Positions 10,310 to 40,799 of a stretch of DNA of 41,423 nucleotides are shown in pieces. The notes under the pieces are model-generated. The model had not been told where the DNA came from. It saw nothing but the letters and a program-made list of their open reading frames with translations, and searched no databases. This DNA comes from Proteromonas lacertae (lineage: Eukaryota), in assembly GCA_002245135.1 (NCBI GenBank), contig NGBS01000057.1, positions 1-41,423 of the forward strand, in the 5' to 3' direction. The translations under genes and the position numbers were made by a program. Within the stretch, counting starts at the first letter, position 1, and the number at the start of each line of letters is the position of its first letter.

Positions 10310-10377
10310 AAAAGTGTCTCATAGACAAACGGCGTGAGAAGATTTAGAAATACGCCGTTTGTCTAGCAGACGTTTTT
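10310..10377. repeat. Short inverted repeat derived from the family B subterminal sequence
   Basis: TAGACAAACGGCGT ... ACGCCGTTTGTCTA. Confidence 0.6.
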
Positions 10378-11700: not shown

Positions 11701-11713
11701 TATTTCTTCAATT

Positions 11714-13083: not shown

Positions 13084-13106
13084 ATTCTAAATAATTTTCA
13101 TACATT

Positions 13107-15309: not shown

Positions 15310-15427
15310 TAAGGTTGTTAAATGTGATTATCATATGCATCTATCATTCCTTTTTAGTGAGTTAGATAAATAAGAATTAAATCTTAGAGAAAAATTATGT
15401 AATTCTTTTACATTTAAAATATATATG

Positions 15428-16739
15428 TTATATTTCCCATCTTTTATTGTTCGTATAATATATAAAAAATTCATGATAGTATAAGACATATACTTTATTG
15501 AACTTTTTACTTCAGTTGGTAGTATTGGATTATCTAGAAATGTCTAAAATAATATAATAATTATATATACGCTCTCTCTATATATATCTTTAGCATATTT
15601 ATTTAATGCTCTAATCTTCCACAATTCAATAAATGAACAAAATTTGTGATTAACGCAATATTTACACAATCTTTTACAATGATTACATTTAAATTGTGGA
15701 AGAATGAAAAATGAATTTGTTAAATAAGCTATATTTAGACCTAATTTGAGAATATTCTCATCTTCATTCATATTATTAGTATTCGCAATAATTATTATAT
15801 ATTTGTTATTTACAGAAGAATAATATCCATTTATATCATATACAAACAAATGCATTTCTTTTTGCCTATATATTTTATTATCCATACCTGTGATCCAGTT
15901 GTTATGCATAATTATATAACTATAATCTACAGTATATAAATGTTTATACTTAATAAATCAGTGTAAAAAATCCTATTATTCTTGATATAAAATTCATCTC
16001 CACATGGAAATAATTTTATTGAAAGATATGTTGCAGTAATTGTACTATTATTTTTTAATGCATAATTCCAATGAGCTTGTTCTCCTAATTTAATTATTAA
16101 TCTATTTTTTTGAAGAATATTCATAAAATCTATCATTCTTTTATTTGACTTTGCATAGCTACAAGAAATAACAATTCATAAATTATAATACTAAAATCCT
16201 GAATTCATTATAGGGCATTTATGATCACATGATGTAACTAAGTCTGTATTATATTTGAATATATAATCTCTAGGATCCTTAAAGAAAATTAAATCAGAAT
16301 CACATAATATAACATCATATTTACTTTCTAATAATAGTTTTACATAATCAGTTTTAGAATATACAATTTTCCAATATAAAGGAGTATTGTAATCAATGTG
16401 TTGAGTAATATTTCTATTTAAATCTGCAATAAACACATTTGGCAACAAATTAAGTGATAAATGGTATCCATCATAATCCAAAGAAATGAATATTGCATTA
16501 TTAATGTTAAATTTAAATATTGATGATAAATAAAAATTAATTGTTTCTTCTATTATATTAGAAGTGAATATAATCAAAAATAAATGATTTATATTATTGA
16601 ATTGTTTGTAAAACTGTTTACTCAAAAAATAATAAGGCTGTTTACATTGATTGTATTCTTTATAAGAGTATAGTGTATATACTGCATAGCAAAGAAATAT
16701 TACATTATATAGATAATAAAATATAATATAGTTATGCAT
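15428..16739 (-). CDS. Nucleotide-diphospho-sugar transferase (GT77-like), paralog of 11714-13083
   Basis: ISLD, LCDSDLIFFKDP, MNSGFYY across intron 16159-16191 (same position as in the paralog), HNNWITG..NKIYRQKE. The 3' end is approximate. Confidence 0.8.
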
Positions 16740-17331
16740 ATATTAAGTACAGTCAAACTCTTTTATATCGAACTTTTTCTTATAAAAACTCATTTAGCAT
16801 TTACAATGTATATCAATACTTATTTAGAAATATTGTAATTAAATTAAATATATTATGTATATATAATAGTTCCATTTTGTTTAGATTCTACAACTAAATC
16901 TACTTAATTAACACATTTTTCTATCTTATTTTCTTTCTAAAGATATCAATTAACAAATACTTTTGTACTAGCTGGTAAAAGTGAAATTAATTCATCGCCT
17001 AAAAGAAATATAAAACAAAATACCTATTTCATTTAGAAATTTAGTCGTTACATTATTCATTTTTCTCTCCTTTTTCATAGAATATACTATGAATGCGAAG
17101 TTTATCTTTCATTTTGTTATATATGCACTGCAATCTATAGATTTAAAACAAAAACAAACATTACATAATTTGATTTAAAAGCTATAAATAACAGATTAAA
17201 AACCATATCATATCAAAATAAACTACACTTATTTTTCATTTATCTATAAAATTACAACCCAAAACAACAACTGCATGAGAAAAACGAAAAATTCGATATA
17301 TAAATATCGATATATACGGGTTTGACTGTAT

Positions 17332-18259
17332 ATGAAAATTTATAGTATTATATTATTAATTATTCTCTTTAATACCATTTTTATATGTTTAAATTATATT
17401 TTGTTAATTAGAAGAAATAAATATATATTAGTTGTTTATACATTATTCTTTATGACAAATAATAATACTAACAGATATGCTATTCAAAATCTAGTATTAC
17501 AAAATCTAAAACAACTAAATCAGAATAAATGTAGATTTGCAATATTTATTGATAAAAATAAAACAATCTATTATAACTATCGGAAATTATTATTTGTACA
17601 GTATAATTTATAGTATAATATAGAAATGAAGAAATATTTATGGAACTCCAATGTTTGGTCAACTATTACATAAAGTAACTATATTATTCAATTCAGAATT
17701 CTATATGTATATTAATGGAGATATATTAATATCCCCTTTATTATTAGACTTCTTTATTACATATAATTTTAAATTACATAATAATAGAATATATTTAACT
17801 TGTGATAGACATAATATATATATTAATAACTCTTACTATATTCAATCTAACAGACATGAACTTATATATATAAAAGGACAACAATACACTCGATGTGGTC
17901 AAGATGTGTTTATCACTATGAAAAACACATTTAATAAGGAACAAATGTTTATTTTAAATAATCTCGCAATAGGAAGAATTGGAATAGATAATTTAATATT
18001 AGGTATTGCTATTAATGATGAAAATATTCTCACAATCGATATTAGTGATATAATTCAAGCTGTACATATCCAATATTCTAAACCAAATGAATATACATAT
18101 ATTATAAAGAAATATGACTATAACTGGAATTATGAGATTATTAAATTATTAAATAAAAGAATAATTAAAGTAGCTTGCTTAAATAAAATAAACTGCTATT
18201 ATAATAAATATTTATCAAAATTTATAGGAAGGAAGAATTGTTTTAATTTGAATTATTAA
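17332..18259 (+). CDS. Putative glycosyltransferase (GT-A like)
   Basis: TM; a 31-nt intron at 17601-17631 gives FVQNIYGTPMFG; FYMYINGDIL, GQDVFI, GRIGIDN. Confidence 0.6.
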
Positions 18260-18343
18260 TATATATGATTATATAAAGCAAATAACAGGATATAACATTT
18301 TAAATAATAGTCAAATAACAACGCTACAATAAACCTAGTTTAA

Positions 18344-19195
18344 ATGATTTTATTATTATTTTTAATATTTTTTCTATTATTTACTTTTATAATGATTTCA
18401 AATACTTATAGAATTATAAATAATCATTGTCCAACTCATTACAAATTAATATCATCTGGATCTTCAGATAATCATTTTCATTTATTATTATTATTTCTAT
18501 ATAGATTATATACAGTAGAAGATAAAATATGTATTGTTATATGGAACTTAGGATTATCATATACTAATAGACTCCAATTAAATAATGCAAAGAAATATAT
18601 TGAAAAGGATAGTATTTTTGTTGATGTAATTACATTTAATTATACAAATTATCCTACTCACTTCAATATCAACATAAACGCAGGATACTATTCATGGAAG
18701 CCGTTTGTAATATGGGAAACTTATATAAGATATAAAAGAACAATGCTTTGGTTAGATTGCGGTTGTTATATTCATTATAAATTAGATTATGAATTTCAAG
18801 AAATTATCAAAAATCAGATATATACTATTAATGCTACTTGTAAAATCAAACGTTGTACACATTATGGATTACTTCAACTTTTTAATGTAAATGAGAGCTT
18901 GTATAACAAAGTAATGTGTGCAGCAGGAATATTAGGTATAGCTTATTATTCTGAAAGAGTTAATTATATTTTCAATATTTGGAAAGCTTGTGCATTAATA
19001 AAAAATTGTATTTCACCTCCAGGATCTCGTAAAGGAAATCATCTACAAGATCAAAGTGTACTGTCAATAATACTATATCAAAATAATATAAATTTTAATA
19101 ATTTTAAAAGAAAAGGATTTTCAACACATTTTGATAAAATCTATAAATTCTATAACGATTCATCATTTAATGATTTTTTAAAAGTAATAAAATAA
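18344..19195 (+). CDS. DUF1647-like putative glycosyltransferase
   Basis: SSDNHF, WNLGL, YSWKP, WLDCG, NHLQDQSVLSI. Confidence 0.7.
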   Translation: MILLLFLIFFLLFTFIMISNTYRIINNHCPTHYKLISSGSSDNHFHLLLLFLYRLYTVEDKICIVIWNLGLSYTNRLQLNNAKKYIEKDSIFVDVITFNYTNYPTHFNININAGYYSWKPFVIWETYIRYKRTMLWLDCGCYIHYKLDYEFQEIIKNQIYTINATCKIKRCTHYGLLQLFNVNESLYNKVMCAAGILGIAYYSERVNYIFNIWKACALIKNCISPPGSRKGNHLQDQSVLSIILYQNNINFNNFKRKGFSTHFDKIYKFYNDSSFNDFLKVIK

Positions 19196-20220
19196 TGCAT
19201 TATTTTATAGACAGTTATTATTTATACTTCTTTATAATTATATTTATATTATCATTTAACTTATTCACTAACATTTATGAGAAAACAGATTTATCCTACC
19301 AAAATTACTTTATGAATGAATTATCTGCAATTAATGCTTGTTGCGCAGATACTGCACCAATTTCATGTAGCAGAAAATATACATTCTCTAACAATAATAT
19401 AAAAAAAATTGGGCCAAATGCAAATAAAAAGAAATATTATAGATTCTATTCAGCTAAATATGTTAATTCTTTTTCAAGTAGAAAATCAAAAATACTAATA
19501 GCATTACACTCGCATATATCTTTATTCTACCATAGATACGTTTTTAGAAATATTTATAAACCTTACAAAAATATACAATTATTATTTTTCATTGGTTTGA
19601 ATATTAATGAAACATATAATTTTGAGTTATACAAGGAAATGAAGAAATACAAAGATATAGTCTTATTTAACTTTTTTTGTAATTATTATAGACTCTGTCT
19701 TTTAACATACAATTTTCTTATGTGGGTAAAGGAATATCAGAGTTATTATGATGTTATAATAAAACATGACACAGATACATTTTTAAATCTATTGTTAGTA
19801 GAATCAGTAATAAATAGGATAATTGAATCAAATATATCGTTTGTACTTGGTAAAATATGGCATTTACATTCAAAGAATAAAATGTATCCTAGTGGAATGT
19901 CATACATTTTTTTATCTAGATCTATTGATAAACTTATTAATAATGTAGATAAAATTATATATAATATGAAATGTAGTTTTGAAGAAGATATGTTGTTTGG
20001 GCTTTTATCAAGGATGGCAAATTTTACTTTTCTTGATACATATGAATCATTTAAGTTTAAGTCTTATATACACATACCAAAGTTCAATTTTAATATAAAA
20101 ACTACTTTCATGATTCATACTCTCAGAATAGCAGAAATAGCTTTTTTGAATTACTTACTAAATAATAAATTTAGCTGCAAAACCTGTTATCTAAATAAAA
20201 CTTGTAATTTACATAATTAA
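19195..20220 (+). CDS. Galactosyltransferase (GT31-like)
   Basis: EMKKYKDIV, IIKHDTDTFLN, YPSGMSYI, EEDMLFG; the start overlaps the upstream stop (TAATG). Confidence 0.8.
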   Translation: MHYFIDSYYLYFFIIIFILSFNLFTNIYEKTDLSYQNYFMNELSAINACCADTAPISCSRKYTFSNNNIKKIGPNANKKKYYRFYSAKYVNSFSSRKSKILIALHSHISLFYHRYVFRNIYKPYKNIQLLFFIGLNINETYNFELYKEMKKYKDIVLFNFFCNYYRLCLLTYNFLMWVKEYQSYYDVIIKHDTDTFLNLLLVESVINRIIESNISFVLGKIWHLHSKNKMYPSGMSYIFLSRSIDKLINNVDKIIYNMKCSFEEDMLFGLLSRMANFTFLDTYESFKFKSYIHIPKFNFNIKTTFMIHTLRIAEIAFLNYLLNNKFSCKTCYLNKTCNLHN

Positions 20221-20955: not shown

Positions 20956-21870
20956 ACCATAGTCCCATTTACGTGAGGCTCTTACGTAACGATCTCTTAC
21001 AAGATGATTTAAGAGCCTCTCTATTCTATGGGGTCTCTACGATTGTGATTCATTATCCAATATTAAGGGTATTTTGGCCTTATTGTAGCTTTCATTTTCC
21101 TAGTGATCTTGATTTCAACAACTCAATACTCTTTTGATCTTATGAAGAGTTAGCAATCTTCCTCATCGTCTGATGATATTCCTAAGTGCAAGGGTAAGCA
21201 TCATCGTCTACAAACAGACTCTGAGATCTTTGTAAGCACTATGGACAACATTACGATCGATGGTATCTCATTGACTAAGCCTAAGAGAAGATCATCATCC
21301 ACGTTGAAAGCAAAGCAACAGAAACTCAAGGTAGTTGAACTAGATGGAATACAACAAGCGATCCGGGCTGCTTTAATGAAGAAGAGTAAGGAAGATGTCT
21401 TTACCTAGTTATCCTAAAGAGCAACACGCCTTATTTCCATCTACACCATCATTCAATGCCCAGGAGAATCTCTCTTACAATGACTACTTGGATCAGTTAA
21501 GGAAGAAGTTCAAGAACCTCGGAACCTACTTGAAAGTCATCCTCAAGGAGTACATACACTTGATGATCTTTCCCAATGAATGCTACAATGCTCTTGTCAA
21601 GATGATAACGTAGTAGGACTCCGAAGGAGTTTTCTTAATCTGCATCACTAGATCAAGATCCATTGATAAGAACAACTTCAAGAAGATAGAGCATGAGTAC
21701 TTGCTTACCCGTCGCTATCAACTCAAGATTATCTCCTAGAGAATGGATATTCTAAGATCAGCCTTAAGAACCATCCAAGAACGCCTTGAAGATATACAAC
21801 ACTTTGTCAAGGACAGCTAACATCAATTGAATATCAGTTGGATAACTTTGGAGCTTTTTGAACTTTAAAC
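20956..21870 (+). mobile_element. Truncated relic related to the hairpin-ended element, carrying a decayed ORF
   Basis: 20956-20986 matches ITR 28975-29005 at 25/31 nt; GC-richer; reading frame ~21142-21868 broken by TAG/TAA stops and one frameshift. The right boundary is approximate. Confidence 0.6.
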
Positions 21871-22517
21871 AATAAGATTAAAAATAAGTTAAAAATATAG
21901 TCAACAAAAATCAAAAATTATTAATGAATCAAAGAATAGAAATATCGTTAGCAATATTGAATCATTATTATGGAATGAATGTTCATCTACTTAATATTTA
22001 GAAATGGAAATGATAATTAATAATTCAAATTCTGATGAAAATTAGTATATAACAACAATTCATAATAAAATCAATTGTAGTTTTAATAAATACAGTTACA
22101 AAGGTATAGCTAATGGTTGTTTTTAAGATTATTTTATTTCCGATTAAAGTTAAGAATGATTATACCAGTGATATTGAAAATAATATTACATAGTACATTA
22201 ATAGATAATATTGAACGTGAAATAGTTGAAAATTATAATGTAAAAGAAATTAATAAAAAAGAAAAAAGAGTTAAAAAATAAAGTATAATAATATGCTTAC
22301 AGAAGTAAATATTTATTATATTATAAATCAATTATCTTATAATAGAAACGAAGAAATATTAATATTAGCAATTATCCTTTTTCTAATAAAGAAAAATAAA
22401 TAATTTAATGTAATTGAAAATGATATTGTAATTAAATATATTAATGATGAAATTTTAAAAGAACATAATATGGAAAAAAGAATAGATGTTCAAACATATT
22501 AAAAATATAGTTGATTG

Positions 22518-22790
22518 TTGTTGTGCGCCGTTTGTCATAGTTGGCCGTTTGTCTACCAAACGCTTTTAAAACAAAATAAATGTATATTCTTACTTGTCTT
22601 GATGAAAAATTGTTACTTTTATACTTACTTTGTTGTATGACCTATATCTGCAGTATACTTTTTTGATAATATAAATAGTTTGAATATTTGCGCCGTTTGT
22701 TTTCTAATAATTTTTGAAGCAAATTAAATGTATATTTAGCTAATATAGACTAGCTGAAATAATTAGAATATAATAATTATTAAATCTTTC
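22518..22790. mobile_element. Solo left arm of a family B fold-back element
   Basis: Near-identical to 9650-~9930. Confidence 0.8.
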
Positions 22791-23349: not shown

Positions 23350-24390
23350 TTGCATATGCAAATTAAATATATAACAATTTTTCATATTAGTTTTATTATG
23401 ATTATTATATACATTTATTGTGTATATGATGGTCTTTCAATAATAATATATGTTGTATTTCCTAATAAAGGTAAAGGAGGCCCGAAATCTTTATCGTATA
23501 ACATTAATAGAGCAATAAAGTTATGGAATGAAAAAGAAAATTTAAAAAAATTAGCAATACTTATATCAGAAGAGAATATGGAATTGAATAGACTAAAAAA
23601 TCTAACTCAGAGAAGAAGAACAATTATATGGCTGCAGAGATCAAGTTATATATATTTGGCAAAGAATCCGATGTATAATAGTGTATTTGCTAAAGTTATA
23701 TATGGCCCGAATGTTACACCATTAAAATGGTTTAATTCAATAAATAATACATATGAGAAATATTGGTGTAGTATTATGAGAAATATTTTTGGATATGTAT
23801 TGCACTCTAATAGAGTAAAGAAACAAGTCATTAAAAACACTAACTGTTATTTCTATGATAGAAAGTATTACTTCCTTAAACCTTGCCTTGAATTTGATTT
23901 AGACATAAATAAGATTAATGAATTGTATAGAAGACCGATAGATTTTTTGATATACATAAAATATGCTGATATAAATAGAAAATTGGATGAATTCATTTTA
24001 GTAGAATATCTAAAACAAAAATATAAAATTAAAATTATCAAATATGGAAATCATTCTAAAGAATATTTATTATTCATAGCAAATAAATCAAAGTTTGTGA
24101 TATATTTTTCATTTTATGATACTGGAGCTCTATCATTATTGGAAATGAAATCAATGGGTACATGGCCTATTTCACATCAAATAGAATTTATTGAAAATGG
24201 ATTTGGTAGTTATGTAAAAGAATTAGATACTAATATATATAATTCTCTAAGTAAAATAGATGATATATATAAAATAAAATATAATCCTAAATATCTGGCT
24301 AAAAATGTATACAACAACTTAAACTGTGAAAAATCATTATATAACTTAATAAAATATATTAAACAATCATTTGATTTGGCTGTACAATAA
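23350..24390 (+). CDS. Putative GT-B (GT4-like) glycosyltransferase
   Basis: TM, GKGGP, YGPNVTP, FVIYFSFYDTGALSLLEMKSMG (D-x7-E motif). First ATG at 23356. Confidence 0.65.
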   Translation: MHMQIKYITIFHISFIMIIIYIYCVYDGLSIIIYVVFPNKGKGGPKSLSYNINRAIKLWNEKENLKKLAILISEENMELNRLKNLTQRRRTIIWLQRSSYIYLAKNPMYNSVFAKVIYGPNVTPLKWFNSINNTYEKYWCSIMRNIFGYVLHSNRVKKQVIKNTNCYFYDRKYYFLKPCLEFDLDINKINELYRRPIDFLIYIKYADINRKLDEFILVEYLKQKYKIKIIKYGNHSKEYLLFIANKSKFVIYFSFYDTGALSLLEMKSMGTWPISHQIEFIENGFGSYVKELDTNIYNSLSKIDDIYKIKYNPKYLAKNVYNNLNCEKSLYNLIKYIKQSFDLAVQ

Positions 24391-24645
24391 TATTTTAAAA
24401 GTAATAATACAACAAACAGCGCACATTATATTAAGAGTAATACAGATTCTTGCAATTAAATGTTTCTCTACGAATCTCAAACTCTTAATACCTCCAATGT
24501 TCTTTTAATTTTTATAAATGAAATAATTCTTTGTTGATTATGGTATATTATATTTATATAACATTTACAGACAATACGTTACGCAAATTTAAGCTAAATT
24601 AAGATTATTTCTTCAATGCGTCACCTTGGTAATAAACATAGAGTA

Positions 24646-25265
24646 TTGTTGTGTGCCGTTTGTCAAAGTTGGCCGTTTGTCTACCAGACACTTTTAAAAC
24701 AAACCATATGCATATTCTTATTTGTCTTGATGAAAAATTGTTACTTTTATACTTACTTTGTTATATGACCTATATCTGCAGTATACTTTTTGTTAATATA
24801 AATAGTATGAATATTTGCGCCGTTTGTTTTCTAGAAATTTTTGAAGCAAATTAAATGTATATTTAGCTAATATAGACTAAAATACATTAGCTGAAATGAT
24901 TAGAACAACTTAATGTTGATCATAAGACATTTAAAATGAAAAAAGAAAATATAGAATCAAGCCTCACTCAAGCCAGCTTTTTAATTTCTTTTTTAAATAA
25001 GTTGTTATTGAAACTATTGTAATCTATTTATATCAAATAATGTATTTTAGACTGTAGTAGTCACTGATACATTAAAATATAAAAAATATAAATATTAGTT
25101 TAATATTGATAATAATGAAGTTCATAAAGAAGTGTGTCACAGATATAGGTCATATGACAAACTAACTATATATTTGTTAATAACTCTTTATAACTAAGAT
25201 AAAAATGATATTAGTTTGTTTTAAAAGTAATTGCATGATGAGAGCGGCTCAACGGCGCACAACAA
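24646..25265. mobile_element. Chimeric fold-back element (B-type left half, A-type right half)
   Basis: The left part equals the reverse complement of B (10287 to ~9955), the right part equals A (~8639-8947), and the switch lies in TCAAGCCTCACTCAAGCC at ~24957-24974. Confidence 0.85.
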
Positions 25266-27030: not shown

Positions 27031-28785
27031 TTAAAGTATTTATGTGTATTATCTATTTCATTCTCTATATGCGTTATACAATCTATACAATTCATCATCG
27101 CAATTATCAACATATATATCAGCATCCAATTTACATTTCAGTATATTATTCAATGTATTACTCCAGATTTTACTCTTTGCATAATATTACTCAAATTAAC
27201 CATTACTGTCGAATAATCATTTTAATTAATAATAATTAAAGAAGTAATGTTATTCATTAATTTATGTAGAAAAATGATAATTTGTCTCGTATTCTTTGTT
27301 TTTCATTTTTTATTTGGTTGCATGAATAGTATTGATAAAAATTAATATTTCTATTTAATAACCAAAATATTATTATTATGGCGTAGTTATGCTTTCAAAT
27401 CTCAACATTTATTAAAAAAAAAATAAACAAAAGTTGCAAATTACATGACAATAGATCAGCATGAGATTTTAGAGATTTTGTATGAAAACTTGATAAAATA
27501 AGGAAAGAAGGCTTGATGCAAGTTTGAAACAATCACTTCAGAATCATTAGTTTTTTTAGTTTTATTTAAATTTTCTATTTTAAAATGTATGTACTATTCG
27601 TAAGAGAATTATTTTCATTTCAATAATTACTTCAATAGAAAGTATGGTTATTTCTAAGTGGTGCAACCGTTTCCAACGGTTGTAATTCCGTTATGTCCAA
27701 TCGTTATTGAATAAATTAAGATTGCGCAAAATGTATTTTTGCATCTAATAAAATCTTCATATGTTGAGGGAATAAATAAAGATATACAAAAAGTATAATC
27801 TAATGAAAATGATATTACATATAAACTTGAAAGAGCAATAATGTAATTTCCATTTTTAAAAATTATGTTATATCTTAGGTATGTTATAAATAGTCTTGGA
27901 TTATCTGTGCATTAGATTATGCTATAGAAAACACATTTGAGTTTTTGACAATTCTTTTTTTAAATTATTCTCAGTATATATAAAGATGCTGTGAAAAATT
28001 TTAATGCATGAAAGTACAAATCGAACTTAGCAGGATGCCAAAATTTTAGCATTTAACTATATGAAATATTGAAAAATGAAAAAGAAAAAGGTACAATCTG
28101 ACAAGTTTTGTAAACTCGATCTGAGTGAAGTATTAAATCCCTACTTTCGAAATACAATTTAAATTTCGAATTATCAAGTTTTGTCTTATAGTGAATATAT
28201 AGTTTTTTCTTTCCTATTGTTTTTATTATTTTATACTTTCATGCCTAACAAGAATGCTTTTTCTGTTAACATATTCTTTTAATACGTAGAAGTAAAGTCA
28301 TTTACAAGTTGGGGAAGTAATTTCCTTAAGTTGATAAGCACATTTTCAATTTGAGGAAAGATAAGTTGTAATATTTTCATTTTTTTCTACTTATGAAATT
28401 TGTTTATCTTCAATTATTCAAGGGCAGATATCAGGAAAGCGACTTGTTTTTATAAACCTGGCTAATTTTAATATTCTGAAAAAAATATATATATTTATAC
28501 TCTTTTATCTATATTTTTATAACATTTATTTTACAATATATTTTATTTTATTTAAAAGTAATAATGTTATGAATGAAAGAGATATTCCATTTAAAAGAGT
28601 AGTATTGAATAGTTTCTATTTAAGTAATTCTTATTACGATATACGATTTCAAATGATAAGAGTTTTAATTTCATATAATCCATTTAATAAATATAAATTT
28701 AGAATAACTGATTTATATTCTAATGAATTAAATTATTCAGTTATAGTATATGACAAATGTATGAGGTCTGAAGATATATAGTATA

Positions 28786-28990
28786 TAAATGTGACCCTGG
28801 TACAATTGTCACAGAGTTCTAACGAGTGTTCTAGGAGTCCGTCCCTTTCTAGATTCAGAGTTGACTTTTACGGGGCCTTCATCGATTGCATCGATGAAGC
28901 TCCCGTAAAGGTCAACTCTGAATCTAGAAGGGGACGGACTCCTAGAACACTCGTTAGAACTCTGTGACAATTGTACCAGGGTCACATTTA
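28786..28990. repeat. 205-nt terminal hairpin
   Basis: Arms 28786-28886 and 28890-28990 (101 nt each, 4 mismatches by manual comparison), loop TGC. Confidence 0.95.
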
Positions 28991-29159
28991 CGTAAGGTTC
29001 CTACGGAATTCCTCCTACGGGGTCTACTTCCTAAGGAGTCTACTTCCCTACGGGGACTCTTGGAAGCTATTTCTATACCTATCTATACCTATCTATGAGA
29101 CGATCTCCTACGGGTACTCCTGGAAGCTATCTAGAAGTGTTGGTCACCTCGAGGTGATG
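28966..29159 (+). repeat. Left inverted terminal repeat
   Basis: Reverse complement of 36498-36691, 4 mismatches in 194 nt. Confidence 0.95.
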
Positions 29160-29249
29160 ATTCTAATCACGCTCTTGACTCTCCTTGCTACGCTGGTGAC
29201 CTTGTAAGGGCTTTTAATTGAATCGTGGAAACCAACTGGGGAACCGGGA

Positions 29250-29339
29250 GTTTACAATTGTTAACTTGTTACCAATTGTTAACTAGTTACCAAATGGTAA
29301 CAAGTTAACAATTGTTAACAAGTTACCAAATGGTAACTC
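29250..29339. repeat. 5 x 18-bp tandem palindromic repeats (iteron-like)
   Basis: GTTTACAATTGTTAACTT, GTTACCAATTGTTAACTA, GTTACCAAATGGTAACAA, GTTAACAATTGTTAACAA, GTTACCAAATGGTAACTC. Confidence 0.9.
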
Positions 29340-29359
29340 CGGGAGGTTCTAGCTAGTTG

Positions 29360-30501
29360 CGGATTTCTCAAGGGCCCTTGAAGATAATGATTAGCAATCT
29401 CGGAAGGCTTGTGAAGGTATGTTTTATCATCCTTATAACTCTCCTAGATAAGTTCATCCACGACCTTCCCGAGAAGAATAGCCGTGTTGGCAAGGAAGGG
29501 AATCTCCCACGATGGGAGATTCCCTGACGCAGTCATGCACGGCTGGACGTATCTGGGAAGGTCTTGATGGTTCTTCTATTAATCAGTGACTTTATAACTG
29601 GAGGTTCTGGTTAGTACTGGATTTTCTCAAGGCCTTGAAGATCATCGTAAGCATTCTCGCTTCCTAGAGGTAAGTCTAATCGTCCTTGTTAATCAACTAG
29701 GTAACATTCAACTATCATCTATCCTAGCAAGGAAGGGATGTTCCTCCTTGAGTTACAGCTCAAGGAGGAACCTCCCGACAAAGCCATGGAACTTCCATCA
29801 AGAGAGACTTCATTACAAAGTCAAGGAACATCCACGGGATCATTGCCTAGGTATGCTTCATTGTCCTTATAACTCTTCTAGGTAAAGTTTAATTACATTG
29901 TCCAGGAGCTCACCGAGGAGATCACCATGATGACAAGGACGAGAGAAGTCCTCCTGAAGGCATAGCCGTAAGGAGGAGTTCTCTAGGACGTAGTCATGAA
30001 TGGTGATCGTATCAGGGGAGGTACTACACTTTGAGCAATAACAAGACCAGGAGATCTTCATCCAGTTAAAGGACCATTATCAGAACCTCTTTAAGCAATC
30101 AACAACTTTGTTACCACTCCAGTTAGGCTTCAATTTCTCAAGGGTCCTTGAAGATCATTGTTATCAATCTTGGGAGCCTTATAAAGGTAAGTCTTATCGT
30201 CCTTGTTAATCAACTAGGTAACATTCAACTATCATCTATCCTAGCAAGGAAGGGATGTTCCTCCTTGAGCTGTAACTCAAGGAGGAACCTCCTGACACAG
30301 TCATGGAACTTCCATCAAGAGACTGCATTACAAAGCCAAGGAACAGGATCATTGCCTAGGTAAGTTTCATTGCCCTTCTAAGACTTGAATCCAAGATGCT
30401 CCAGCTAGTTCTGAATTTCTCAAAGGCCTTGAAGATCGTGATAAACAATCTCGGGAGGGTTCTGTAGGTATCTTCCATTAGCCTTGTAAGTCATCTACTA
30501 G
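29360..30501 (+). ncRNA. Array of putative spliced non-coding hairpin RNA units
   Basis: Repeated leader TTTCTCAA(G)GG.CCTTGAAGAT (~29363, 29622, 30134, 30416); 31-nt GT..AG segments (29417-29447, 29670-29700, 29851-29881, 30187-30217), each followed by a stem-loop with conserved AAGGA/GACNNA internal loop. Expression unproven. Confidence 0.5.
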
Positions 30502-30549
30502 GAAGCTCCTTACATACCAGTTTAGTTTATTTATTCCTGAAGGTAAAGT

Positions 30550-31615
30550 TCATTCCCGAGGACAGCATCATCATCTAAGCAATCGTAGAAACGTGAATAC
30601 CATGATTGGGAAGCTTAGGATAAGTAGGAACTTACCTGAGCACTTGTTAGAGATGTTACTGGAGGTAAGCTAATGAGCAATTTCTTAAGGTCAATTCCCC
30701 ATCATCTGTCCAATGGAGATTGAATAGGAATCATTCTGAAGCTATTCACTAAATACTGTAGCTGAACAATACATATACTAGGATCAGCAATCCATAAGCA
30801 AGGTCAAGATGCCCTAGTGGGCAGACCAGGTACCAACATCCCATCCCCTCCGGGTTCGAACCCCAGTACAGCTACTGCTTATATCTGAACCACCTCCTAC
30901 ATAGCCTTGCCTCATCAACTCAGGAGATCGCCAGCAACTTCTAAGATCCAAATTCTAAAGAAAAAATTGAATAGAGATGAATCTGAGATGAACAGTTCAC
31001 TACGTAGTACAACAACAGATACCCTAGCACTAGAACGAGATCAACTGCAGGAGCTTAGGAAGCATTGAGTGACCCCTACTACAAGAAGCCTAGGAGTTGG
31101 AGGTGCATTCACAACTCTGATAAGGAAGGTTTAAAAATAGGGACATAGAAAATAGATCCTGGACTTAGTTGCTAAATTCCTGGACTTGGTTCACTACTGA
31201 TTACATCTACAGATCACTAAGCTAGGTTGCGTGATTGCCTAAGCTGATCCAAGAGGATATGGTAGTTAAGGGAGTCTTCAATAGCATAAGCTATGCTTAC
31301 CATGGTTCAATGTGACTGAATAGAAGATGCTATTCAAGTAAGATCAACAAGAGTTAACATCCATGGTTCACTACAAAGTACGTCTACAGATCAACTAACA
31401 TAAGCTGAAGGATTAACTGATTGAATGTATGAAGACTCTGGAATAGAAGTATAATCATAAGCATGATCAGGTGTTTAAGGATGTTGATAACTAGAACATC
31501 AAAGAAAGCAATACCTCCGATAGAAGGAATGATAAAATCAGACTTCATTGAAGAGATATCGATAGTTCATTACATAGTACAAGTACATATCACCTACTAG
31601 TAACTTAGGATCCAT
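30550..31615 (-). pseudogene. Possible heavily decayed minus-strand gene of the element
   Basis: ATG-led frame MDPKLLVGDMYLYYVMNY, then stretches broken by many TAG/TAA stops and frameshifts; no homology recognised. Confidence 0.3.
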
Positions 31616-31690
31616 TAGCGTAAGTCCAATACCAATGTAACAACAACAACAAATGCTAATATCAATAGTTCATATACGATACAACTACAG

Positions 31691-32575
31691 ATGAGATTGT
31701 CTAGTTCAATTTTTCCCTTGCAATCAGAAACAATGATTAAATGCTCATCTTGTCATATCAGGGCCTCTAAGGAAACCAATGCTGATGGATCTGGGTATTA
31801 TAAGACTTGTAGTAGATGCCGAGAAAGAGCAAGTAGACGCACAATCACTCTTATTGAGAAGCATCACAAGGAAAGGAACTTGTTGAAGAATGATACTAAG
31901 CCCGTAAGCGATAAGCTATCCTGCAGTAGATGTCATCGAAGCTTAAGTCTATTGTTCTTTAAGAATCCCGATGGAGGTTACTTCAATTGTTGCCATCGTT
32001 GTAGGTGTAGAAGGAGCCTGGCTAAACATAAGCAACAGTCCAAGAACTCCACCAATGCTACTCCCGATCCAGCTCTTGACGAATTAAGGACAAGGATGAA
32101 CCTAAAAATCCAACGCAATAGACAAGAGATAGTGAAGATGATCAAGGAGAACTCCGATCTATTCAACTGGGATGAAGTCTTCAATCAGACCTTTATAACT
32201 CCATGCAATAATTATCAACCAGCAAAAGAGCCTTGCAAGACCTTGATCTCGTTAGCATTAAGGAACAAGCAAGTCAAGATAGAGATAGATCCTCCGGTAA
32301 AGCCACTTCCAACCTGCTGCTTTATTACTCTCTACGATTGCTTAAGCATATTCAAGAATGATCTTCAACACGAGGTAGATTCAGCAAAGAATCGTAAAGA
32401 CCTTGATAATCCTCCTGTAAAGAGACCGATAACAAAACTCTCAGTATCATCACGAGGTGCTTCAAGTGATCCTCCAGCGAAGCATCTAAAGCTAGCTTCT
32501 GAAGCAACTCCTTACCCGGCGAAGTCATCAGAAGCAGTAGTAGTAAACGCATCTACTGATAAGGAACGTGATTAA
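31691..32575 (+). CDS. Cys-rich putative zinc-binding protein with two tandem CxxC...CxxC modules; likely start 31733
   Basis: CSSC...NADGSGYYKTCSRCR and CSRC...KNPDGGYFNCCHRCR; intact 294-codon ORF. Confidence 0.65.
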   Translation: MRLSSSIFPLQSETMIKCSSCHIRASKETNADGSGYYKTCSRCRERASRRTITLIEKHHKERNLLKNDTKPVSDKLSCSRCHRSLSLLFFKNPDGGYFNCCHRCRCRRSLAKHKQQSKNSTNATPDPALDELRTRMNLKIQRNRQEIVKMIKENSDLFNWDEVFNQTFITPCNNYQPAKEPCKTLISLALRNKQVKIEIDPPVKPLPTCCFITLYDCLSIFKNDLQHEVDSAKNRKDLDNPPVKRPITKLSVSSRGASSDPPAKHLKLASEATPYPAKSSEAVVVNASTDKERD

Positions 32576-32599
32576 CATTGTTGGTACATAGTAAAATGT

Positions 32600-33690
32600 T
32601 ACCTTGGGTATGACCGAGGACAATAGAAATAATCAATTCAAGGAGCCTTACGGAGATGAGCAACTCAAGGACATGGTAAGTAATCAATTCAATAAACTAA
32701 AGGAGTCTTGGATAAGTTAATGATAGTAAGGACATCAACAACCCCGAGATAACAACCTTGGATCAATGACTCTGAAGATCATGAAGTAGTTGTAGGTACA
32801 TAAAGAGTTACAATTGCAGACTATAGGAAGTGTGATCGATAATCCTTTACATGAGTAGTCCTTACTTATGATGCTAGGAATCATTACTAGTAAGTAAGTA
32901 AGTAGACCAGAGATATCGTATACTCCTCAAGTAGCAACACTGGCATAGATGTCCAAGAGTCTATAAGCTATCGATCGTAAGGTGATTATCAGTAGATAGG
33001 TAAATACACTGACTTCAATAACAATACCGAGACTAGTAGTGATCAGACTGAAGGCTAGTACATTACTGAGGATCAACAACTTCGATGAACTAGAACTAGA
33101 AGGAATTGTCACTTGAGGGGTTACCATCAGTTCAAGAGAGAGGTATCGGTAAAGATCACAAGTAGTTCTTCAAGAGATGTTAAGGATGAGATCAACTCTA
33201 ACTTCAACAGTCAGTCTCAAGGTACTTACCAGAGTGAAGACAAAGTACTTTATAGGTAATGCCTGCCACGTCCGAGAAGTCCAAGAAGGTAAAGGAGCAT
33301 CTGGAATAGAGACGATTAGTAGATCCTTGGAAGTCAAAGGTGCAAGTGAAGTCTACGGAGAGTAGTTGAACTTCAAAGGAGGCTTCTGACCATCGTATAA
33401 GTCTTATCGGAATAGAAGCATTGTAAGTTAAGATGGTAGATGATGATCGAGACTATGAAGTTCACAGCATAGAGATCACGCAACTCATTACAAAGACCGA
33501 TAAAGTCATCTACATCCATCAGCTAGTAATCGTAAGGAGTTGAAGTTCATCGTGTGGATAGAGTAAGCAAGGTACTTCTCGGGAGGTAGGTAAAGCTGTT
33601 GAAGGCCAGGACATGTTATGATATAAGAGATACCTGAGAAGTCATCTAAGTAAAGTAGCTCCTGGATCTATAAATAAAGTTCTAATCTGG
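32600..33690 (-). pseudogene. Possible decayed minus-strand gene of the element
   Basis: Successive protein-like minus frames (QELLYLDDFSGISYIITCPGLQQLYLPPEKYLAYS; MDVDDFIGLCNELRDLYAVNF; VDFTCTFDFQGSTNRLY) separated by frameshifts. Confidence 0.35.
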
Positions 33691-33706
33691 AATCATTACC
33701 TAGGCA

Positions 33707-36164
33707 ATGTTCAACACCGGGAACAACTTACGGGAGAACGATGAGGAGATGTTAAGGTTACTTAATACTATCGACAAGACTACTTACGATGTGAAGCAAA
33801 AGATAGATGGAAAGGTCGTTGTTAAGTATGATAAGGACGTGTTGTTCCAAGACTCCCAGGAAGTGATTCAAAAGGCTTTGAGTTCTGGTGAACTCAAGGC
33901 CGTGATAGACTATGATAAGATCAATCCTCCATTGGTAAGCACTATCCAAGAAGTCCTCCGAGGAACACCAGTCAGTATCAATCAGAAGCAACAAGAAGAA
34001 GTAACCTCATCCACAACAGCTATCAAGAGAAAGTTGGATGATCACTCGGAGGAGTCATCTACGAAGTTGGCTAAGCTAGAGACTGATCATCATCAACTCC
34101 ATGAGTACCTTCAAGGTACCTTACAACCAGATCATAAAGCTATTCAATCGACCTTAAAGGAAGTGCTAGATGAGACTGATAAGATTGAAGGTATCGATCA
34201 GAAGCTCCAGGAAGTCAAGAACCTATGTACTTTGCTTAACAACAAGATCCCTAAAGACTTCGGAGAGACAACTATCACATCCTTGAGCAATATTGCTACT
34301 TGCAGCAATGAACTTAAGCACTACACGGAGAAGCAATTACCAGAGTTGTATAAGAGCATGGAGGATGTAAGCTATATCCTTGAATCCACCAACACTTCAA
34401 TCGATCAATTGAAAGCATCGGAGGATGAGAAATTGGATCGTCTAAGTACCTTGTTGAAGTCATTATGCGAGAGTCTCAACATCGGGGATGTTAACGTCTA
34501 CGATATGATCAAGTACATCACTACGATGGATGATAAGAGCCTTACGAAGCTCACTGACTTAGAGAAGCAGATCAAAGTAGCCTCCGAGGAGTTGATCAAG
34601 ATGAAGAACAACTACGAGGAGTACAAGGCAATCAATACTGTGATTAACAATAACATGATTAAGTTCAAGGAGGTCTTACAAGAGATTGAGATTGCCAATG
34701 GTTACAACAAGGACTTCAAGAACCAGATGAATGCTATGGAGGAAGAGATCGCCGGGTTGAATGGAGAAGCTGACAAGACGAATACCTTCTGCACTGAGGA
34801 GAGAGCTACCGCTATTGACAAGACCAAGGGATATTGTAAGTAAGATAGATATCGATGATATCAACCAGTATTGTAGTAGCTCACAGAAGGAGAAGATTGA
34901 TAAAGTCCATGAGCTGATCACCGGCATAGCCATCGAAGATATTAACAACTACTGCTCCTTGGAGAGACTTACCATTGTCAAGAGTATTGAGGAACTGATC
35001 AAAGGATTCATTACCGATAAGAGAACTAAGGAGATCGACATACCGACAACACAATCAAGGAGTTTTGTACTTTCCGAGAAGTGCTGCTATCGATGAGACC
35101 AACACTGTTGTGAAGCACTTCTGTACTTCGGATCGATCGGAGAAGATAGATAAGTGTTATGAGCGTGTCCATGACCTCAACAAGGAGAGTATTAACCAGT
35201 TCTGTACTGAAGGCCGAGGTAACTTCATTGATACAACAAAGGCCAACACCGATGCAATCAAGATCAAGGTGGATTCTCTAAGTATCACGATGTGAATGCA
35301 ACCTGTGGCGTGGCTAGAAGGACTGAAGAAGACAACCTCCGAAGGAACTTTGGATGGCTTCTTTAACAACACTCGTAAAGGACTCATCGACACAGCTATC
35401 AACAATGCAGCTGCTATCAGAACCAAGATCGATGGATTCAATACTGGGAATGTCAATAGCTTCTGTTCACCAGCTCAATTAACCAAGGTCAATGAAGTAC
35501 ATTCAAAGATAGGAGACTGCCAGACAAGAGTCATTGAAGTCCAAGGCAAAGTCAACAACCTCAACAACCTGGCCGTAACTCAAGTAAACAACATTACCAG
35601 TGCAGCTCAATTAAGTAAGATCAACTCAGTCGATAGCAATGTCCAGGATGTCCAGAAGAAGTTGACCGAGTTGAAGACATCAGTAGAAAGTCTGGCTTCT
35701 CAAGGAGATGGATCATCGGAGATCAAGACCGTACTTAACCAGATGAGTAACACCTTGTCTTCGATATTGAACATGACAGCAGCTAGCATGGACTCTCCTC
35801 TGGTGGCAGTTCCCATAAGCTTCTATAGTACAGTAAGACCTGATTGTAAATTCGAATGTTTACTTAAGGCTTATGTCAATCGTGTAGAGCTGGAGTTCAT
35901 ATCAAGCAGCGGATGGATCGGGAAAGTGTGGGTGAAGGATGTGAATGCAAAGGGCTTTGCTAAGTTAAGGAGTGGTTCCATCTTGATAAGAAGATAAGTC
36001 ACTGGGTTGTTCCCAATCCTAGAGATCCTAACATGACTGATTATGACAGACACTTCCTTGAATTCATCCCCGCCGACAATTCAATTCATTGTGAATTCGG
36101 TATGATGCCAGGTAATGGAACAAGAGCAATCTGTATAGATGCTAACTTCAATGGTCCTCAATAG
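33707..36164 (+). CDS. Large (~800 aa) coiled-coil/repeat protein with a C-terminal globular domain, disrupted
   Basis: ORFs 33707, 34761, 35065, 35296 and a final frame (FHLDKKISHWVVPNPRD...FNGPQ*) join via frameshifts near 34828, 35040-35070 and 35975 and a TGA at 35293; shared repeat N-x-(F/Y)C-x3-(R/Q)-x3-(I/V)D. Confidence 0.7.
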
Positions 36165-36497
36165 TCGATGTGTGTTGGGTGAACTATCGGAGGATAACTA
36201 TAAGCAGTGACCACCTTCGGAGCTGCCCAACCATGCTGCAAATAGTTTACCTTGCTTTGTTGGGCAGCAACAACTCCAAGAGATTCAACAACCCTGGATG
36301 ATGATCAAATGAAAGTTCCTTCTCAATGATCCTGGTAATGAAGAAAGCAGTTCTTCTTCCGGGCATGGACAAGAACGTCTACGACGGAACCTTCCTTACC
36401 AAGTCCGATATTGCTCCGCAACATCGTCCTTGGTAAGGAAGCTTCCTCTGAGACGTTCTTACCCATACTCCGAAAGAGATCACTGCTTCTTCATTAC

Positions 36498-36698
36498 CAT
36501 CACCTCGAGGTAACCAACACTTCTAGATAGCTTCCAGGAGTACTCGTAGGAGATCGTCTCATAGATAGGTATAAGTAGGTATAGAAATAGCTTCCAAGAG
36601 TCCCCGTAGGGAAGTAGACTCCTTAGGAAGTAGACCCCGTAGGAGGAATTCCGTAGGAACCTTACGTAAATGTGACCCTGGTACAATTGTCGGAGTCC
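36498..36698 (-). repeat. Right inverted terminal repeat with a truncated hairpin arm
   Basis: 36498-36691 is the ITR; 36692-36698 GGAGTCC matches the hairpin arm after a 23-nt skip. Confidence 0.9.
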
Positions 36699-37475
36699 AT
36701 TTATATAGGTATATAGTGGTTAATAAATAAACATATCAATTACAAAAGAAATAATGTTAAATAAATATTCTAAGATTAAAATGTTAAATCAATATGCGTT
36801 TTTATAGCATTTTTCTTAGACTATCGCACATATAATTTGAACTAAATATATACCTCACGTTGCTTTTACTTATATAAAATGAGATTTTTTACTTATTTCA
36901 TTTCTTCACCACTAAACAATTTACACATTAATATGCCAAATAAGAAATCAACTGACAAAGCAACTATCCTACCTCTCAAAACACATACTACATCACTCAA
37001 AAAAAGAAATAATAAAAACAATAAAACCATCACTAAAAATATAGTCGTTTCAATAATTTAAAAATATCTTTCTTGTTAAGATGGTGTTGTCTACTAAAAA
37101 TAATATAATTCTAAAGTATTTTACTAGTAGCAATTATTTTGTTGAATAGATAAAAGGTATGACCTCATTGAGCGTTATTGAAGCAATTTAATAAGATGAA
37201 TATTTAAGCAATAAAGTTCCATTGTTCAATAAAAAATTGAAATGATTCGAAATATTCTAATAGTTCCATTATTTCAATAGTTGTATTAATGTAATAATCA
37301 CATTATTTTATACCAAACACAGTTTTATAGAAATATGAGAATAAGAAGTTCGATTTAGAAAAATATTCAAAAATTGTTTAATATTTGGGAATAGAGTAAG
37401 ATATAAGTAAATAGAGATAATATGCATATGTTTTAATGTATTTATTAATTGCTATTCTTATTCAATAAGAATGTA

Positions 37476-39340
37476 TCATTCTGCAATATAGAGTTCCGCC
37501 ATATTGGTAACAACATTCTTGATATCTTGGAGAAACGATGATATGAATGAACTAGTGTCACTGCAGTTGAACGTGAATTCTTTACCTTTACTGAGTAATG
37601 ATAAGTACCTTGGACTTCTTATGAGTAGAAGTAGCCATAGGCTCACGCTGTTGTAATTCAAGGCTAGAGGAAGTACGGGTAGATAATGCTTGTTGAGTAT
37701 TCATAAGGCAATGTCTTTCTCTCTTCTCTCGGAGGATCAGAAAAAAATGAATACAGAGATGCCTGATATTATAAGTCCATCCCAAGAACATCTGCATTAT
37801 CAGTAGAAGGATGGTAATCAAGATACATCGGATAAATCTAACAACATCTACTATACTCAATAGCTGGGTGATCTTCAAGGAACATCTGGACGTTCAAGAC
37901 AAGGAGGATTCAAAAGACTCTTACCAGCGCTTCGCCATGACAGAAGAACTCACGGAAGCTATAACTCCAGTAGCGACAACTTCTTTCAGCGACAAGCACA
38001 AAGCGATCAAAGTCAAAATCCATTACTCGGTAAGATCCAAGGAAGTGAACGATTAAGTAAATTGGTAACTCCCGCCGGAAGAAGTTCCGAAATGTTAACA
38101 TTCCGAAGTGAGTTGTGAATCGACATTCCCGGCATTGATCAATTTTCTTGCCTTTCAATCATGGTCATCTCAACTACTAATAGATCGATTGCTCCTTACC
38201 GTCCTCCTTTAGTTATGGAGGCTATACTTCATGGTCAACCTCAAATAGCCTTCATAAAAGCAATGCCTTATGAACACACTCACATGGAGTATAGCAATAG
38301 CCCGCAATTTGTTAATGGATTACTAGGACTCACCAGCCAAGATAATCCTTGTAATTTGATTTTGATCAAAGATGTTCCCTTAACAACCTCAGGGTTGAAG
38401 ATCATAGCATCATGCAGCAACTGGACTATACCATCGGTGAGCTCCTTATGCAATGTATGAGCCTATCTTCAAATCTACCGATAGTGATCCTTACCAATGC
38501 TACTCGAGATCATGTCTTTAACATCACTGATAAATATAACTTCTTCGTCCTCTCGGCAAAGGAACGATACGGACAATTGAGTTACAATAACAAGATGTGG
38601 AAGGTGGAAGCACTGCAATGGATCATGAACTACTACTTCGATGGCCCAATAACTTAGGGTACTTGATAAGGATCCCTTGGATGCACTTCATCTATCAGTT
38701 TCAATCCTTAAGAAGGCGATTCAACTAGAAGTAGGCCAGGCTGCTGATGGAGAGAAGCTCATTGGTACCATAGAGAAGTTGAACCTCAACCTTGCTTCCT
38801 TCTGTAGAGATCTCCGATCCTTCCACGTCCACTTAAAGAAGTAATTAATTAGTCTTTGTTTATTTTTTGTTGTCTTTGCTTAAATAACACTAAGCGTCCT
38901 CGTAAGTGATAATGTTCTTGGACCTTTATGTAAAGTCGTAGGAAGCAGATTGAGCTTCATAAGGTGATGATGGAACTTGGCAGAAAGGTTCTCAAAGTAT
39001 ATACAGTCATTATCAGGAGTAGGATCGGTATACCTGACCATCACTCCGAGATTCCTTATCTGTTGCTTCCTTATTGTTAAAGATCACGTACTTAGCTTCT
39101 TCATTCAAGGTGATCTCCTCCTACACATAATTGTAAAGGGCATCTAGGAACTAGTTCAAACAACATCGCTTGCATTCTTTAAGCGTCTTATCATGTTCTA
39201 ACCCTTTGTTCATAACTTGATCTAGATTCTCCCAACTTGTTCTAAATCTCTATTATAAGGAATGCAATTATGCACTCTTGTTGTACACCGTTGGGAGATA
39301 AATGGGTTTAGATTACGTTGAAGTTATAAACGTAACCTTA
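37476..39340. mobile_element. GC-richer multi-gene relic resembling the hairpin element in composition
   Basis: Several decayed ORFs on both strands (plus 38161-38844 via two frameshifts; minus ~38880-39215 with in-frame TAGs); TGGTAACTCC at ~38063 matches the last iteron. Boundaries approximate. Confidence 0.5.
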
Positions 39341-39928: not shown

Positions 39929-40799
39929 TTAGAAGTTACTCTTTCTTTTAGCAAGAATATTATTCTTTGATTCTCTATTGCAATCAAATTTTTTGATAAT
40001 TTCATATCCCATTTCATTGAGAATTTGAAACATATTTTCTATTTCATAATTTCCATTCTTCTTCTTTCTTCCACATCCTACCTCCATATATATAAATTCG
40101 GATACATGAGTTTTTAAAAAATTCTTTCCTCCATCAATTAGCTCATATTCAGCACCCTCTACATCTATTTTTATCATAGCAATTCTTTTAGGAATAATTT
40201 TGTCAAATTGATCTAGTCTTTTTACATGTATATATTCCTTATAATCACTATGATTATAGTGTAAAGATGAATAACCCCAATTATTCTTCACAATTCTCAT
40301 TATTTGATTTTCATCCCTCTTTCCTAAAGCATATGGGTATATATTTATTAACTTAGAAAATTTATGATTGCTAAATGTAGTTAAACTGAATGGAAACAAA
40401 TTATTTGGAAGAGGTTCAAATGCAATAACTTTTACATTTGCACTAGCAAACACAAAGAGCATGAACCAATATTTGCTCCAAAATCAACAAATATCCCATT
40501 CTTACTTCCAGATAAATATATGTTATAAATCTCTTGACATTCAGGCCATTTACCTTTAATTCTAATGATGTTAGACACGTAGTCATCATTTCTTATAACT
40601 TGAGCAAATGACATGTTGAATATTTTGCTTGAGTAAAATATATGATTGATTATTTAATATAGTAGGTACTGTTACATATTTTAACATTTTATATTTTTAT
40701 TATTACTAATATTCTCCTTAGATACTATTTTATATTTATATGATACAAGATAATAAATATAAACACTATTAATAATGCATATAAAACCAAAAATTTCAT
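39929..40799 (-). CDS. FkbM-family methyltransferase with an N-terminal TM, frameshifted (pseudogene or assembly error)
   Basis: FVDFGANIGSCSL, VIAFEPLPNN, MIKIDVEGAE; frameshift at ~40460 and an unresolved break at ~40680. Confidence 0.8.

Follow-up and report, generated by a model that had tools for sequence, protein, structure and literature searches.

Within a 41,423-nt stretch of DNA from Proteromonas lacertae (assembly GCA_002245135.1, contig NGBS01000057.1, positions 1 to 41,423 of the forward strand; hereafter the window) lies a 7.7-kb, GC-rich, mobile-element-like insert in AT-rich protist DNA. The insert carries a tandem array of leaders, tiny intron-like segments and hairpins, which the first-pass annotation had read as non-coding RNA genes: either small-RNA precursors or decoys against host defence. 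The locus raises the question of what such an array encodes, if anything, and at which level (DNA, RNA or protein) its conserved features would be maintained.

The insert and its ends

The GC content per kilobase is 38-44% across 29001-37000, as against mostly 19-31% in the host part of the window. Like Polinton-like viruses, virophages, transpovirons and DIRS elements, the insert has terminal inverted repeats (194 nt, 98% identical); the array sits within these bounds, which supports its annotation as element-encoded (Table 1). The palindrome at the left end consists of 97 Watson-Crick pairs, three G.T and one C.C. At the element ends (28772-28990 and 36667-36714) a palindromic ACAATTGT core flanked by imperfect inverted arms occurs three times, a layout which we take to recall a recombinase or hairpin-telomere site. 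Both outer flanks start with TATATAAATG in inverted orientation; hence, the true ends of the element may lie ~20 nt further out.

The long hairpin adjoining the right repeat has 77 pairs and folds to -114.9 kcal/mol on the minus strand versus -89.8 kcal/mol on the plus strand, with a z-score of -13.9 on minus. On that strand it displays the CAAGGAC/GGAC tandem G.A motif of the array units, and it could be part of an inward transcript antisense to ORF B.

Table 1. Positions of the features of the insert in the window (R.R, purine-purine; Y.Y, pyrimidine-pyrimidine mismatches)
Feature	Position	Strand	Remarks
Near-perfect palindrome, left end	28786..28990		205 nt; overlaps left terminal repeat by 25 nt
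Left terminal inverted repeat	28966..29159	+	194 nt, 98% to 36498-36691
Hairpin of 18-nt palindromic tandem units	29244..29343		mismatches without strand bias, R.R 4, Y.Y 3
Unit 1 leader, type A	29364..29416	+	palindrome TCAAGG/CCTTGA, then ~30 nt
I1, intron-like segment	29417..29447	+	31 nt
Unit 1 long hairpin	29462..29563	+	outer GAA/GUA loop, AA/GCA loop, tandem G.A, 12-13 bp terminal stem
Unit 2 leader, type A	29623..29669	+	
I2, intron-like segment	29670..29700	+	31 nt; second GT..TAG piece 29701-29727 follows
Unit 2 hairpin	29722..29790	+	inner module only: tandem G.A, 18-bp stem, loop TTACAG
Leader type B (ATCATTGCCTAG)	29839..29850	+	motif same as just before ORF B start codon
I3, intron-like segment	29851..29881	+	31 nt; second GT..CAG piece 29882-29905 follows
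Unit 3 long hairpin	29905..30024	+	GGA/GUA, AA/GUA, tandem G.A, further GAA/GUA loop; unit 1 homologue
Unit 4 leader, type A	30134..30186	+	
I4, intron-like segment	30187..30217	+	31 nt; second GT..TAG piece 30218-30244 follows
Unit 4 hairpin	30239..30307	+	unit 2 copy, loop reverse-complemented (CTGTAA)
Leader type B and I6	30348..30395	+	I6 = 30360-30395, 36 nt, ends AAG; no hairpin after
Unit 5: leader type A variant and I5	30414..30501	+	I5 = 30468-30501, 34 nt; no hairpin after (z ~0)
Second degenerate repeat family, GTTCAYTA…CTACAG/AT	30985..31692	+	period ~190 nt, last copy ends at ORF A ATG
ORF A	31691..32575	+	294 aa, paired CxxC motifs in N-terminal half
ORF B	33707..36164 (end approximate)	+	coiled-coil-like; predicted small beta region near end
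Long imperfect hairpin	36328..36501	-	adjoins right repeat on inner side; tandem G.A motif
Right terminal inverted repeat	36498..36691	-	194 nt

Pfam and homologue searches detected no capsid, ATPase, helicase, integrase, recombinase, reverse transcriptase or transposase in the element, within the reach of methods that divergent or shredded genes could escape; among 12 ORFs and 72 further frame fragments there was no Pfam match above cut-off. With transpovirons, fragments of Polinton-like viruses and DIRS-type elements the insert shares several features by which these are generally known: a size of ~7 kb, inverted repeats of a few hundred bases, orphan CxxC ORFs and a GC content unlike that of the host. 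Unlike them, it has no detectable helicase, capsid, packaging ATPase, integrase, tyrosine recombinase or reverse transcriptase. We infer that it is a non-autonomous or decayed mobile element, to which we assign no class. This copy has probably undergone partial decay, given the frameshifts in ORF B, the missing outer stem of units 2 and 4 and the absence of a hairpin from two of the array copies. Having no relative in the databases, the element also marks an unclassified family, and we know of no such non-autonomous inverted-repeat element with a spliced hairpin array.

Protein genes of the element

The frame of ORF B changes several times after ~34830, and these breaks look like frameshifts. 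Protein searches found no homologue of ORF B; one candidate was confirmed in one search, without a locus. A single-sequence model of its end (pLDDT 47) gave no Foldseek match at E<=0.001 and is uninformative. The sole match of ORF A is a repetitive low-complexity protein, which we rejected as a homologue; no relative was found among viral contigs, and the best atlas score, 0.85, is a lead only. None of the possible introns in the element's protein genes could be validated as a calibration for those of the array.

The second repeat family, upstream of ORF A, is not structured, and its CTACAG/AT ends are acceptor-like. In it GTAAG at 31338 and 31620 could define introns of 54 and 72 nt, the latter of which would end exactly at the ORF A ATG. 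On the minus strand at 33731-33668, two back-to-back 32-nt GT..TAG pieces span the start of ORF B; these may echo the array, with chance also possible (palindromic CCTAGG motif).

The array units and their splice signals

The four 31-nt segments are present as annotated, with AG/GTAAG or AG/GTATG at their start (slash at the segment boundary) and CTAG at their end, and so is the 34-nt variant I5; a sixth copy, I6, had been missed. The pattern AGGTA[AT]G-N22-CTAG, chosen after inspection of the data, occurs four times on the plus strand and zero times on the minus strand, as against at most 0 in 200 shuffles of the array, 1 in 200 of the element and 1 in 40 of the window. The observation that most segments follow a conserved leader holds for type A, whose palindrome has three exact matches (0 in 100 shuffles) and a variant near 30415; the copies at 29851 and 30360 follow the ATCATTGCCTAG leader instead.

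I2 and I4 are identical at 30/31 positions and I1 and I3 at 26/31, with 21-23/31 for the cross pairs, and the ~250 nt around units 2-3 at 29623-29872 are 85.5% identical to those around unit 4 at 30134-30381, in a duplication of ~510 nt. Judged by these identities, the segments are paralogues, i.e. duplicated copies of one module, so that their equal length of 31 nt counts as about two observations rather than four; since all copies descend from one locus, none of the counts given here are independent. HMMs of the units revealed no further convincing copies in the window. Introners, similar introns at unrelated sites, present a different picture: the copies here have homologous flanks and are confined to the array.

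Anchored on the donor, AGGTA is invariant in 6/6 copies, as against one of 18 upstream columns; anchored on the acceptor, the terminal AG is invariant, as against none of 16 downstream columns, with the I5 and I6 ends having been placed at an AG. A profile of this form fits selection for splicing. The segments have a U2-type GT donor with extended donor consensus and an AG acceptor (YAG in 5/6, AAG in 1/6), and by eye a TAA, a putative branch-point motif, is seen ~9-15 nt before the AG in all six. Directly 3' of the segment, units 2, 3 and 4 have another GT…YAG piece (27, 24 and 27 nt, respectively); the true acceptor is therefore uncertain, and the real intron in these units could be 55-58 nt. 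The distal acceptor lies at the base of the rod in unit 3 and in the CAAGGA motif in units 2 and 4.

The lengths had been said to match the tiny introns of the host, and they do so loosely. The 16 gaps in host genes of the window that we interpret as introns (the three of at least 50 nt being doubtful) measure 25-68 nt, with a median of 36.5 nt; however, none is of 31 nt, and their GC content of 4-30% is lower than the 32-35% of the array segments.

Besides these differences in length and GC content, it speaks against selection for splicing that predicted folds pair most donor bases and bury the donor in most units. TCCTT, the invariant core of the intron-like segment, is complementary to AAGGA, a likewise invariant loop strand within that unit (29682-29693 with 29725-29733, with a copy in unit 4), and the fold predicted for units 2 and 4 before splicing has nine pairs across the acceptor. 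This pairing is a possible switch between splicing and folding, made of words that are common in the element.

Coding potential of the array

The first-pass annotation had seen no consistent ORF in the array, and our counts agree: across the 64 splice combinations of the six segments the longest ATG ORF has 49 aa. This ORF arises in spliced unit 1 and has no counterpart in the other units. None of the 90-nt windows of the array looks coding under a codon model that was trained on ORFs A and B: all score at most 3, as against more than 5 in untrained coding stretches of the element.

A still smaller product might be envisaged, in the form of micro-ORFs. The ATG within the GTATG of I1 and I3 opens a frame of exactly 10 codons, with a TAA just after the segment that would fix its length, and these frames, like the 49-aa ORF of spliced unit 1, can be read directly. 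In I2 and I4, however, AAG replaces the ATG and an internal stop is present, and the other units have nothing corresponding to the longer ORF, which leaves this reading hardly credible.

Hairpins and possible selection on RNA

A stem-loop after each of the four 31-nt segments had been claimed and is confirmed, with scan z-scores of -3.7 to -5.5 on the plus strand; for the unit 1 hairpin itself the z-score is -5.76 (0/200 shuffles). The fold-backs of units 1 and 3 comprise 38-40 pairs, with loops interrupting them, and those of units 2 and 4 comprise 24-28 pairs. Three elements are common to units 1 and 3: on the outside a loop G(A/G)A/GUA, then a loop AA/G(C/U)A and, beside the terminal stem, a tandem G.A.

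On which strand these structures were maintained may be read from their mismatches, counted by a strand-neutral alignment of arm to arm. Purine-purine mismatches outnumber pyrimidine-pyrimidine ones on the plus strand by 7:1, 5:1, 13:0 and 4:1 in units 1 to 4, i.e. 25 versus 2 in units 1-3 pooled; the ratio is 4:3 in the 18-mer hairpin and 6:1 in the right-end hairpin read on minus. The pooled ratio of 35:6 (excluding unit 4 and the end palindrome) has a nominal P of 5e-6, which is overstated because the units are related and the strand of the right hairpin was chosen by energy. The bias of G.U over A.C (7:2, P 0.18) is not significant, and the kilobase 29001-30000 is almost without strand skew. 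Unit 1 folds to -64.1 kcal/mol on plus versus -53.2 on minus and unit 3 to -58.2 versus -45.6, whereas units 2 and 4 fold 0.3-1.5 kcal/mol better on minus. As a whole these counts and energies favour hairpins structured on the plus strand, the same as that of the splice signals.

Comparison of units 1 and 3 gives a further indication. As MAFFT misaligned them and RNAalifold on that alignment recovered local structure only and not the rod, the pairs were counted by script in two registers. In a structural register, fitted to the structure by hand, the 24 pairs of unit 1 comprise 14 unchanged, five with double compensatory changes, three kept through a single-side change and two broken; four G.A/A.G mismatches are unchanged, two unit 1 mismatches pair in unit 3, and simulation gives P values of 0.0007 (doubles) and 0.002. 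In the sequence-only alignment (n=22) there are 15 unchanged, two double, one single and four broken, with P values of 0.04 (doubles) and 0.35. Covariation of the stems is suggestive and not proven. The loops of units 2 and 4 (29753-29758 TTACAG and 30270-30275 CTGTAA) are exact reverse complements, i.e. the loop has been inverted; such loops would allow a kissing interaction of the two RNAs.

Rfam covariance models gave no match at E<=1 within 29360-30560 (0/12), and all 12 matches were below the gathering score; those to miRNA families at 29244-29343 and 36354-36478 are generic hairpin matches and were discarded. Hammerhead and hairpin ribozyme cores, SECIS, kink-turn, SRP helix 8 and Sm site, as commonly defined, were rejected on inspection. 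Nor do the array loops show AGUA or GGUA opposite GAA or AAA, the pattern of the sarcin-ricin motif, as a C precedes GUA in them.

A model for the array and its alternatives

We favour, with a probability of about 0.45, the reading that the array belongs to a non-autonomous element in partial decay and encodes hairpin RNAs that are spliced and bind a protein. Each module would be, formerly and perhaps still, a short RNA polymerase II gene with its start site in the leader: a first exon of ~10-35 nt and the tiny intron would secure normal processing, the host spliceosome is predicted to remove the 31-nt piece, and exon 2 would take the form of a rod with internal loops rich in G·A. The rod would then probably serve as a site for a protein, which would bind at the GAN/GUA and tandem G·A loops. 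This partner, itself conjectural, would be a factor that a non-autonomous element must recruit or titrate, with the element's CxxC protein, a mobilisation protein of a helper, or a double-stranded-RNA or silencing factor of the host as candidates. A decoy against host defence, as annotated, is a conceivable role. As to the start sites, ATCATTRCCTAGG is found at 29839 and 30348, in both type B leaders, and at 33692, directly before the ORF B ATG and just downstream of the element's only TATAAATA; the I6 leader and ORF B further have an equal 12-nt spacing from an upstream A(T/C)AAAG. The leaders are thus probably gene 5' ends of the kind used for the element's protein gene.

These same observations have to be weighed against a simpler account, in which the array is a dead relic: tandem duplicates of the 5' end of one ancestral gene (promoter, intron and hairpin) that have no function and owe their likenesses to descent only. 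The clear ~510-nt duplication, the several frameshifts of ORF B, the two copies without hairpin and the weak covariation in the sequence-only alignment are all as expected of such a relic, and the second repeat family, by ending at the ORF A ATG, indicates that the element duplicates gene 5' ends. What it fails to explain is that the stems of units 1 and 3 diverged with their pairing and four mismatches kept, and that conservation peaks sharply at the splice signals; these point to selection after duplication, at least in the past, and palindrome repair at the DNA level would presumably erase mismatches and not keep them. We consider the relic rather unlikely. Small-RNA precursors of the hpRNA or miRNA type, from which Dicer-like cuts would yield guides silencing host genes, a helper or a competing element, are unlikely to a greater degree. 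The ~40-pair rods of units 1 and 3 and the 77-pair right-end hairpin would provide substrates for them, and spliced tandem hairpin-RNA loci are known in Drosophila (PMC10317233). The uninterrupted stems of the array are, however, shorter than 21 bp, the terminal stems differ between units in both sequence and length, and the Rfam search of the array was negative at E<=1. Within the window no 13-mer of the unit or right-end hairpins matches outside the array. The annotation as small-RNA precursors is thus not upheld: what is conserved are the non-canonical loops and not the stem sequence, stem length is variable and no target match occurs in the window, which favours a binding site over a guide precursor.

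Two further accounts give the structures a role other than as separate RNAs. That every unit has its own leader, and that leader B resembles the ORF B start region, suits separate start sites and speaks against a reading in which the ORF A message begins in the left terminal repeat and has a single long 5' leader with several introns, its hairpins acting in cis to restrain translation or set its timing, or to tag the RNA to be packaged or copied. A structured leader of 2.5 kb would, moreover, block scanning. The splice signals do all point towards ORF A, an acceptor-like CTACAG is found directly before its ATG, and a long hairpin lies directly inside both terminal repeats, the right one being clearly more stable on the inward strand; even so, we hold the long leader to be improbable. 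Signals at the DNA level, with the palindromes and hairpins as binding sites or single-strand DNA structures for replication or recombination and the GT-AG ends incidental, are more improbable still: they leave unexplained why conservation is donor- and acceptor-shaped on the strand of the purine-rich loops. They would account for the many palindromes, namely that of 205 nt at the end, the array of 18-nt palindromic units and that of the leader with its 0-2 nt spacer, and for the loop inversion between units 2 and 4, inversion of a loop being a typical DNA-level event.

The reading as protein-binding hairpin RNAs may be extended to a more specific proposal, which we regard as speculative and, taken with all its parts, as having the odds against it: the insert would represent a new class of non-autonomous protist element with tandem miniature spliced RNA genes, encoding a rod that binds a protein and contains loop-E-like and tandem G.A modules; RNAs, and not proteins, would recruit helper machinery or soak up a host RNA-defence factor; and the uniform, GC-richer 31-nt introns would mark a horizontal origin from a lineage with ~30-nt introns. 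If expressed, the array would make RNA-based counter-defence or helper recruitment open to test in a compact system, and in a lineage from which few mobile elements have been described; if not, it is a decayed duplication of modest interest.

Comparison with known systems

Animal viruses are known to encode structured RNAs that act as decoys or scaffolds, and host genomes to contain clusters of spliced hairpin RNAs. The array would work like one or the other of these, and could be assigned to neither by the features that define them. The adenovirus VA RNAs are short, structured, protein-binding RNAs in multiple copies, made as unspliced polymerase III transcripts of an autonomous virus. The array is comparable to them in that a parasite would carry several copies of a short, structured non-coding RNA, VA RNAs acting by protein binding; it differs in that its units are intron-like and polymerase II-like and the element has no recognised viral gene.

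The submotif of bacterial 5S loop E is GAN/GUA, and the array loops resemble loop E and the sarcin-ricin motif in that GAA faces GUA and tandem G.A mismatches occur within a helix. The sarcin-ricin motif is AGUA/GAA, and the four sequences listed in PMC1865062 have a 5' purine before GUA. In contrast, the array loops are CGUA or CCGUA opposite GAA or GGA, symmetric (3x3) and without the 5' purine, and their non-canonical pairing is a prediction.

According to the description of hpRNA loci in PMC10317233, those of Drosophila are non-coding fold-backs, mostly spliced and in part in tandem clusters that arose by local duplication; their arms share homology with the gene or transposon that they target, and the Dcr-2-dependent siRNAs come from host loci. 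The array likewise presents tandem, non-coding, putatively intron-bearing fold-backs from duplication, with splicing predicted in this case. Its arms, however, are short and have no target match in the window, its G.A loops are kept, and it resides inside a mobile-element-like insert.

For the related question of intron length, the intron data of PMC12129017 indicate that in Blastocystis nearly all introns are of 30 bp in human subtypes (39-55% GC), and longer and variable in isolates of 21-23% GC. The array segments are of the length class of the former, and the host genes of the window, with short AT-rich gaps of 25-68 nt and the standard code, resemble the latter; the array pieces are GC-richer and more uniform than these putative host introns.

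Searches for relatives of the array returned none. The leader pattern has 0 matches in viral contigs; in 11 metagenome contigs that matched it, all 11 matches were limited to about the motif in unrelated context and were dismissed as relatives. A 19-mer of the terminal repeat occurs in two viral contigs, where the match is only 20 nt. The pattern of the hairpin 3' arm has 0 matches in prokaryote genomes, and blastn of the array against phages gave no match. Among the entries listed by literature searches, none describes an array of spliced structured RNA genes in a transposon-like element of a protist, and the available portion of the egovirus preprint (10.1101/2024.03.23.586382) has no link to the element.

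Other features of the window

No tRNA was found in the window, and a scan for bacterial promoters and terminators gave no more than in shuffles. Two other GC-rich blocks are present. The fragment at 20956-21860 has broken ORFs and a start that resembles the terminal repeat (79% over 34 nt, E 0.038), and is possibly the remnant of a related element. The third block, 37480-39300, has convergent, frame-broken orphan ORFs, none of which matched Pfam above the cut-off; near 38855 it has a junction rich in TTTGTT. The host DNA contains an AT-rich, palindromic MITE-like family with arms of 200-275 nt (8356-8941, 9641-10400, 22509-22790 and 24637-25260). By eye, a spliced host gene at 1-2675 resembles a hybrid histidine kinase with a receiver domain, and a cluster of AT-rich, intron-poor ORFs (10912-20220, 23350-24390 and 39929-40650) resembles glycosyl- and methyltransferases. 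A host SPFH-domain protein has two relatives, at 85% and 79%.
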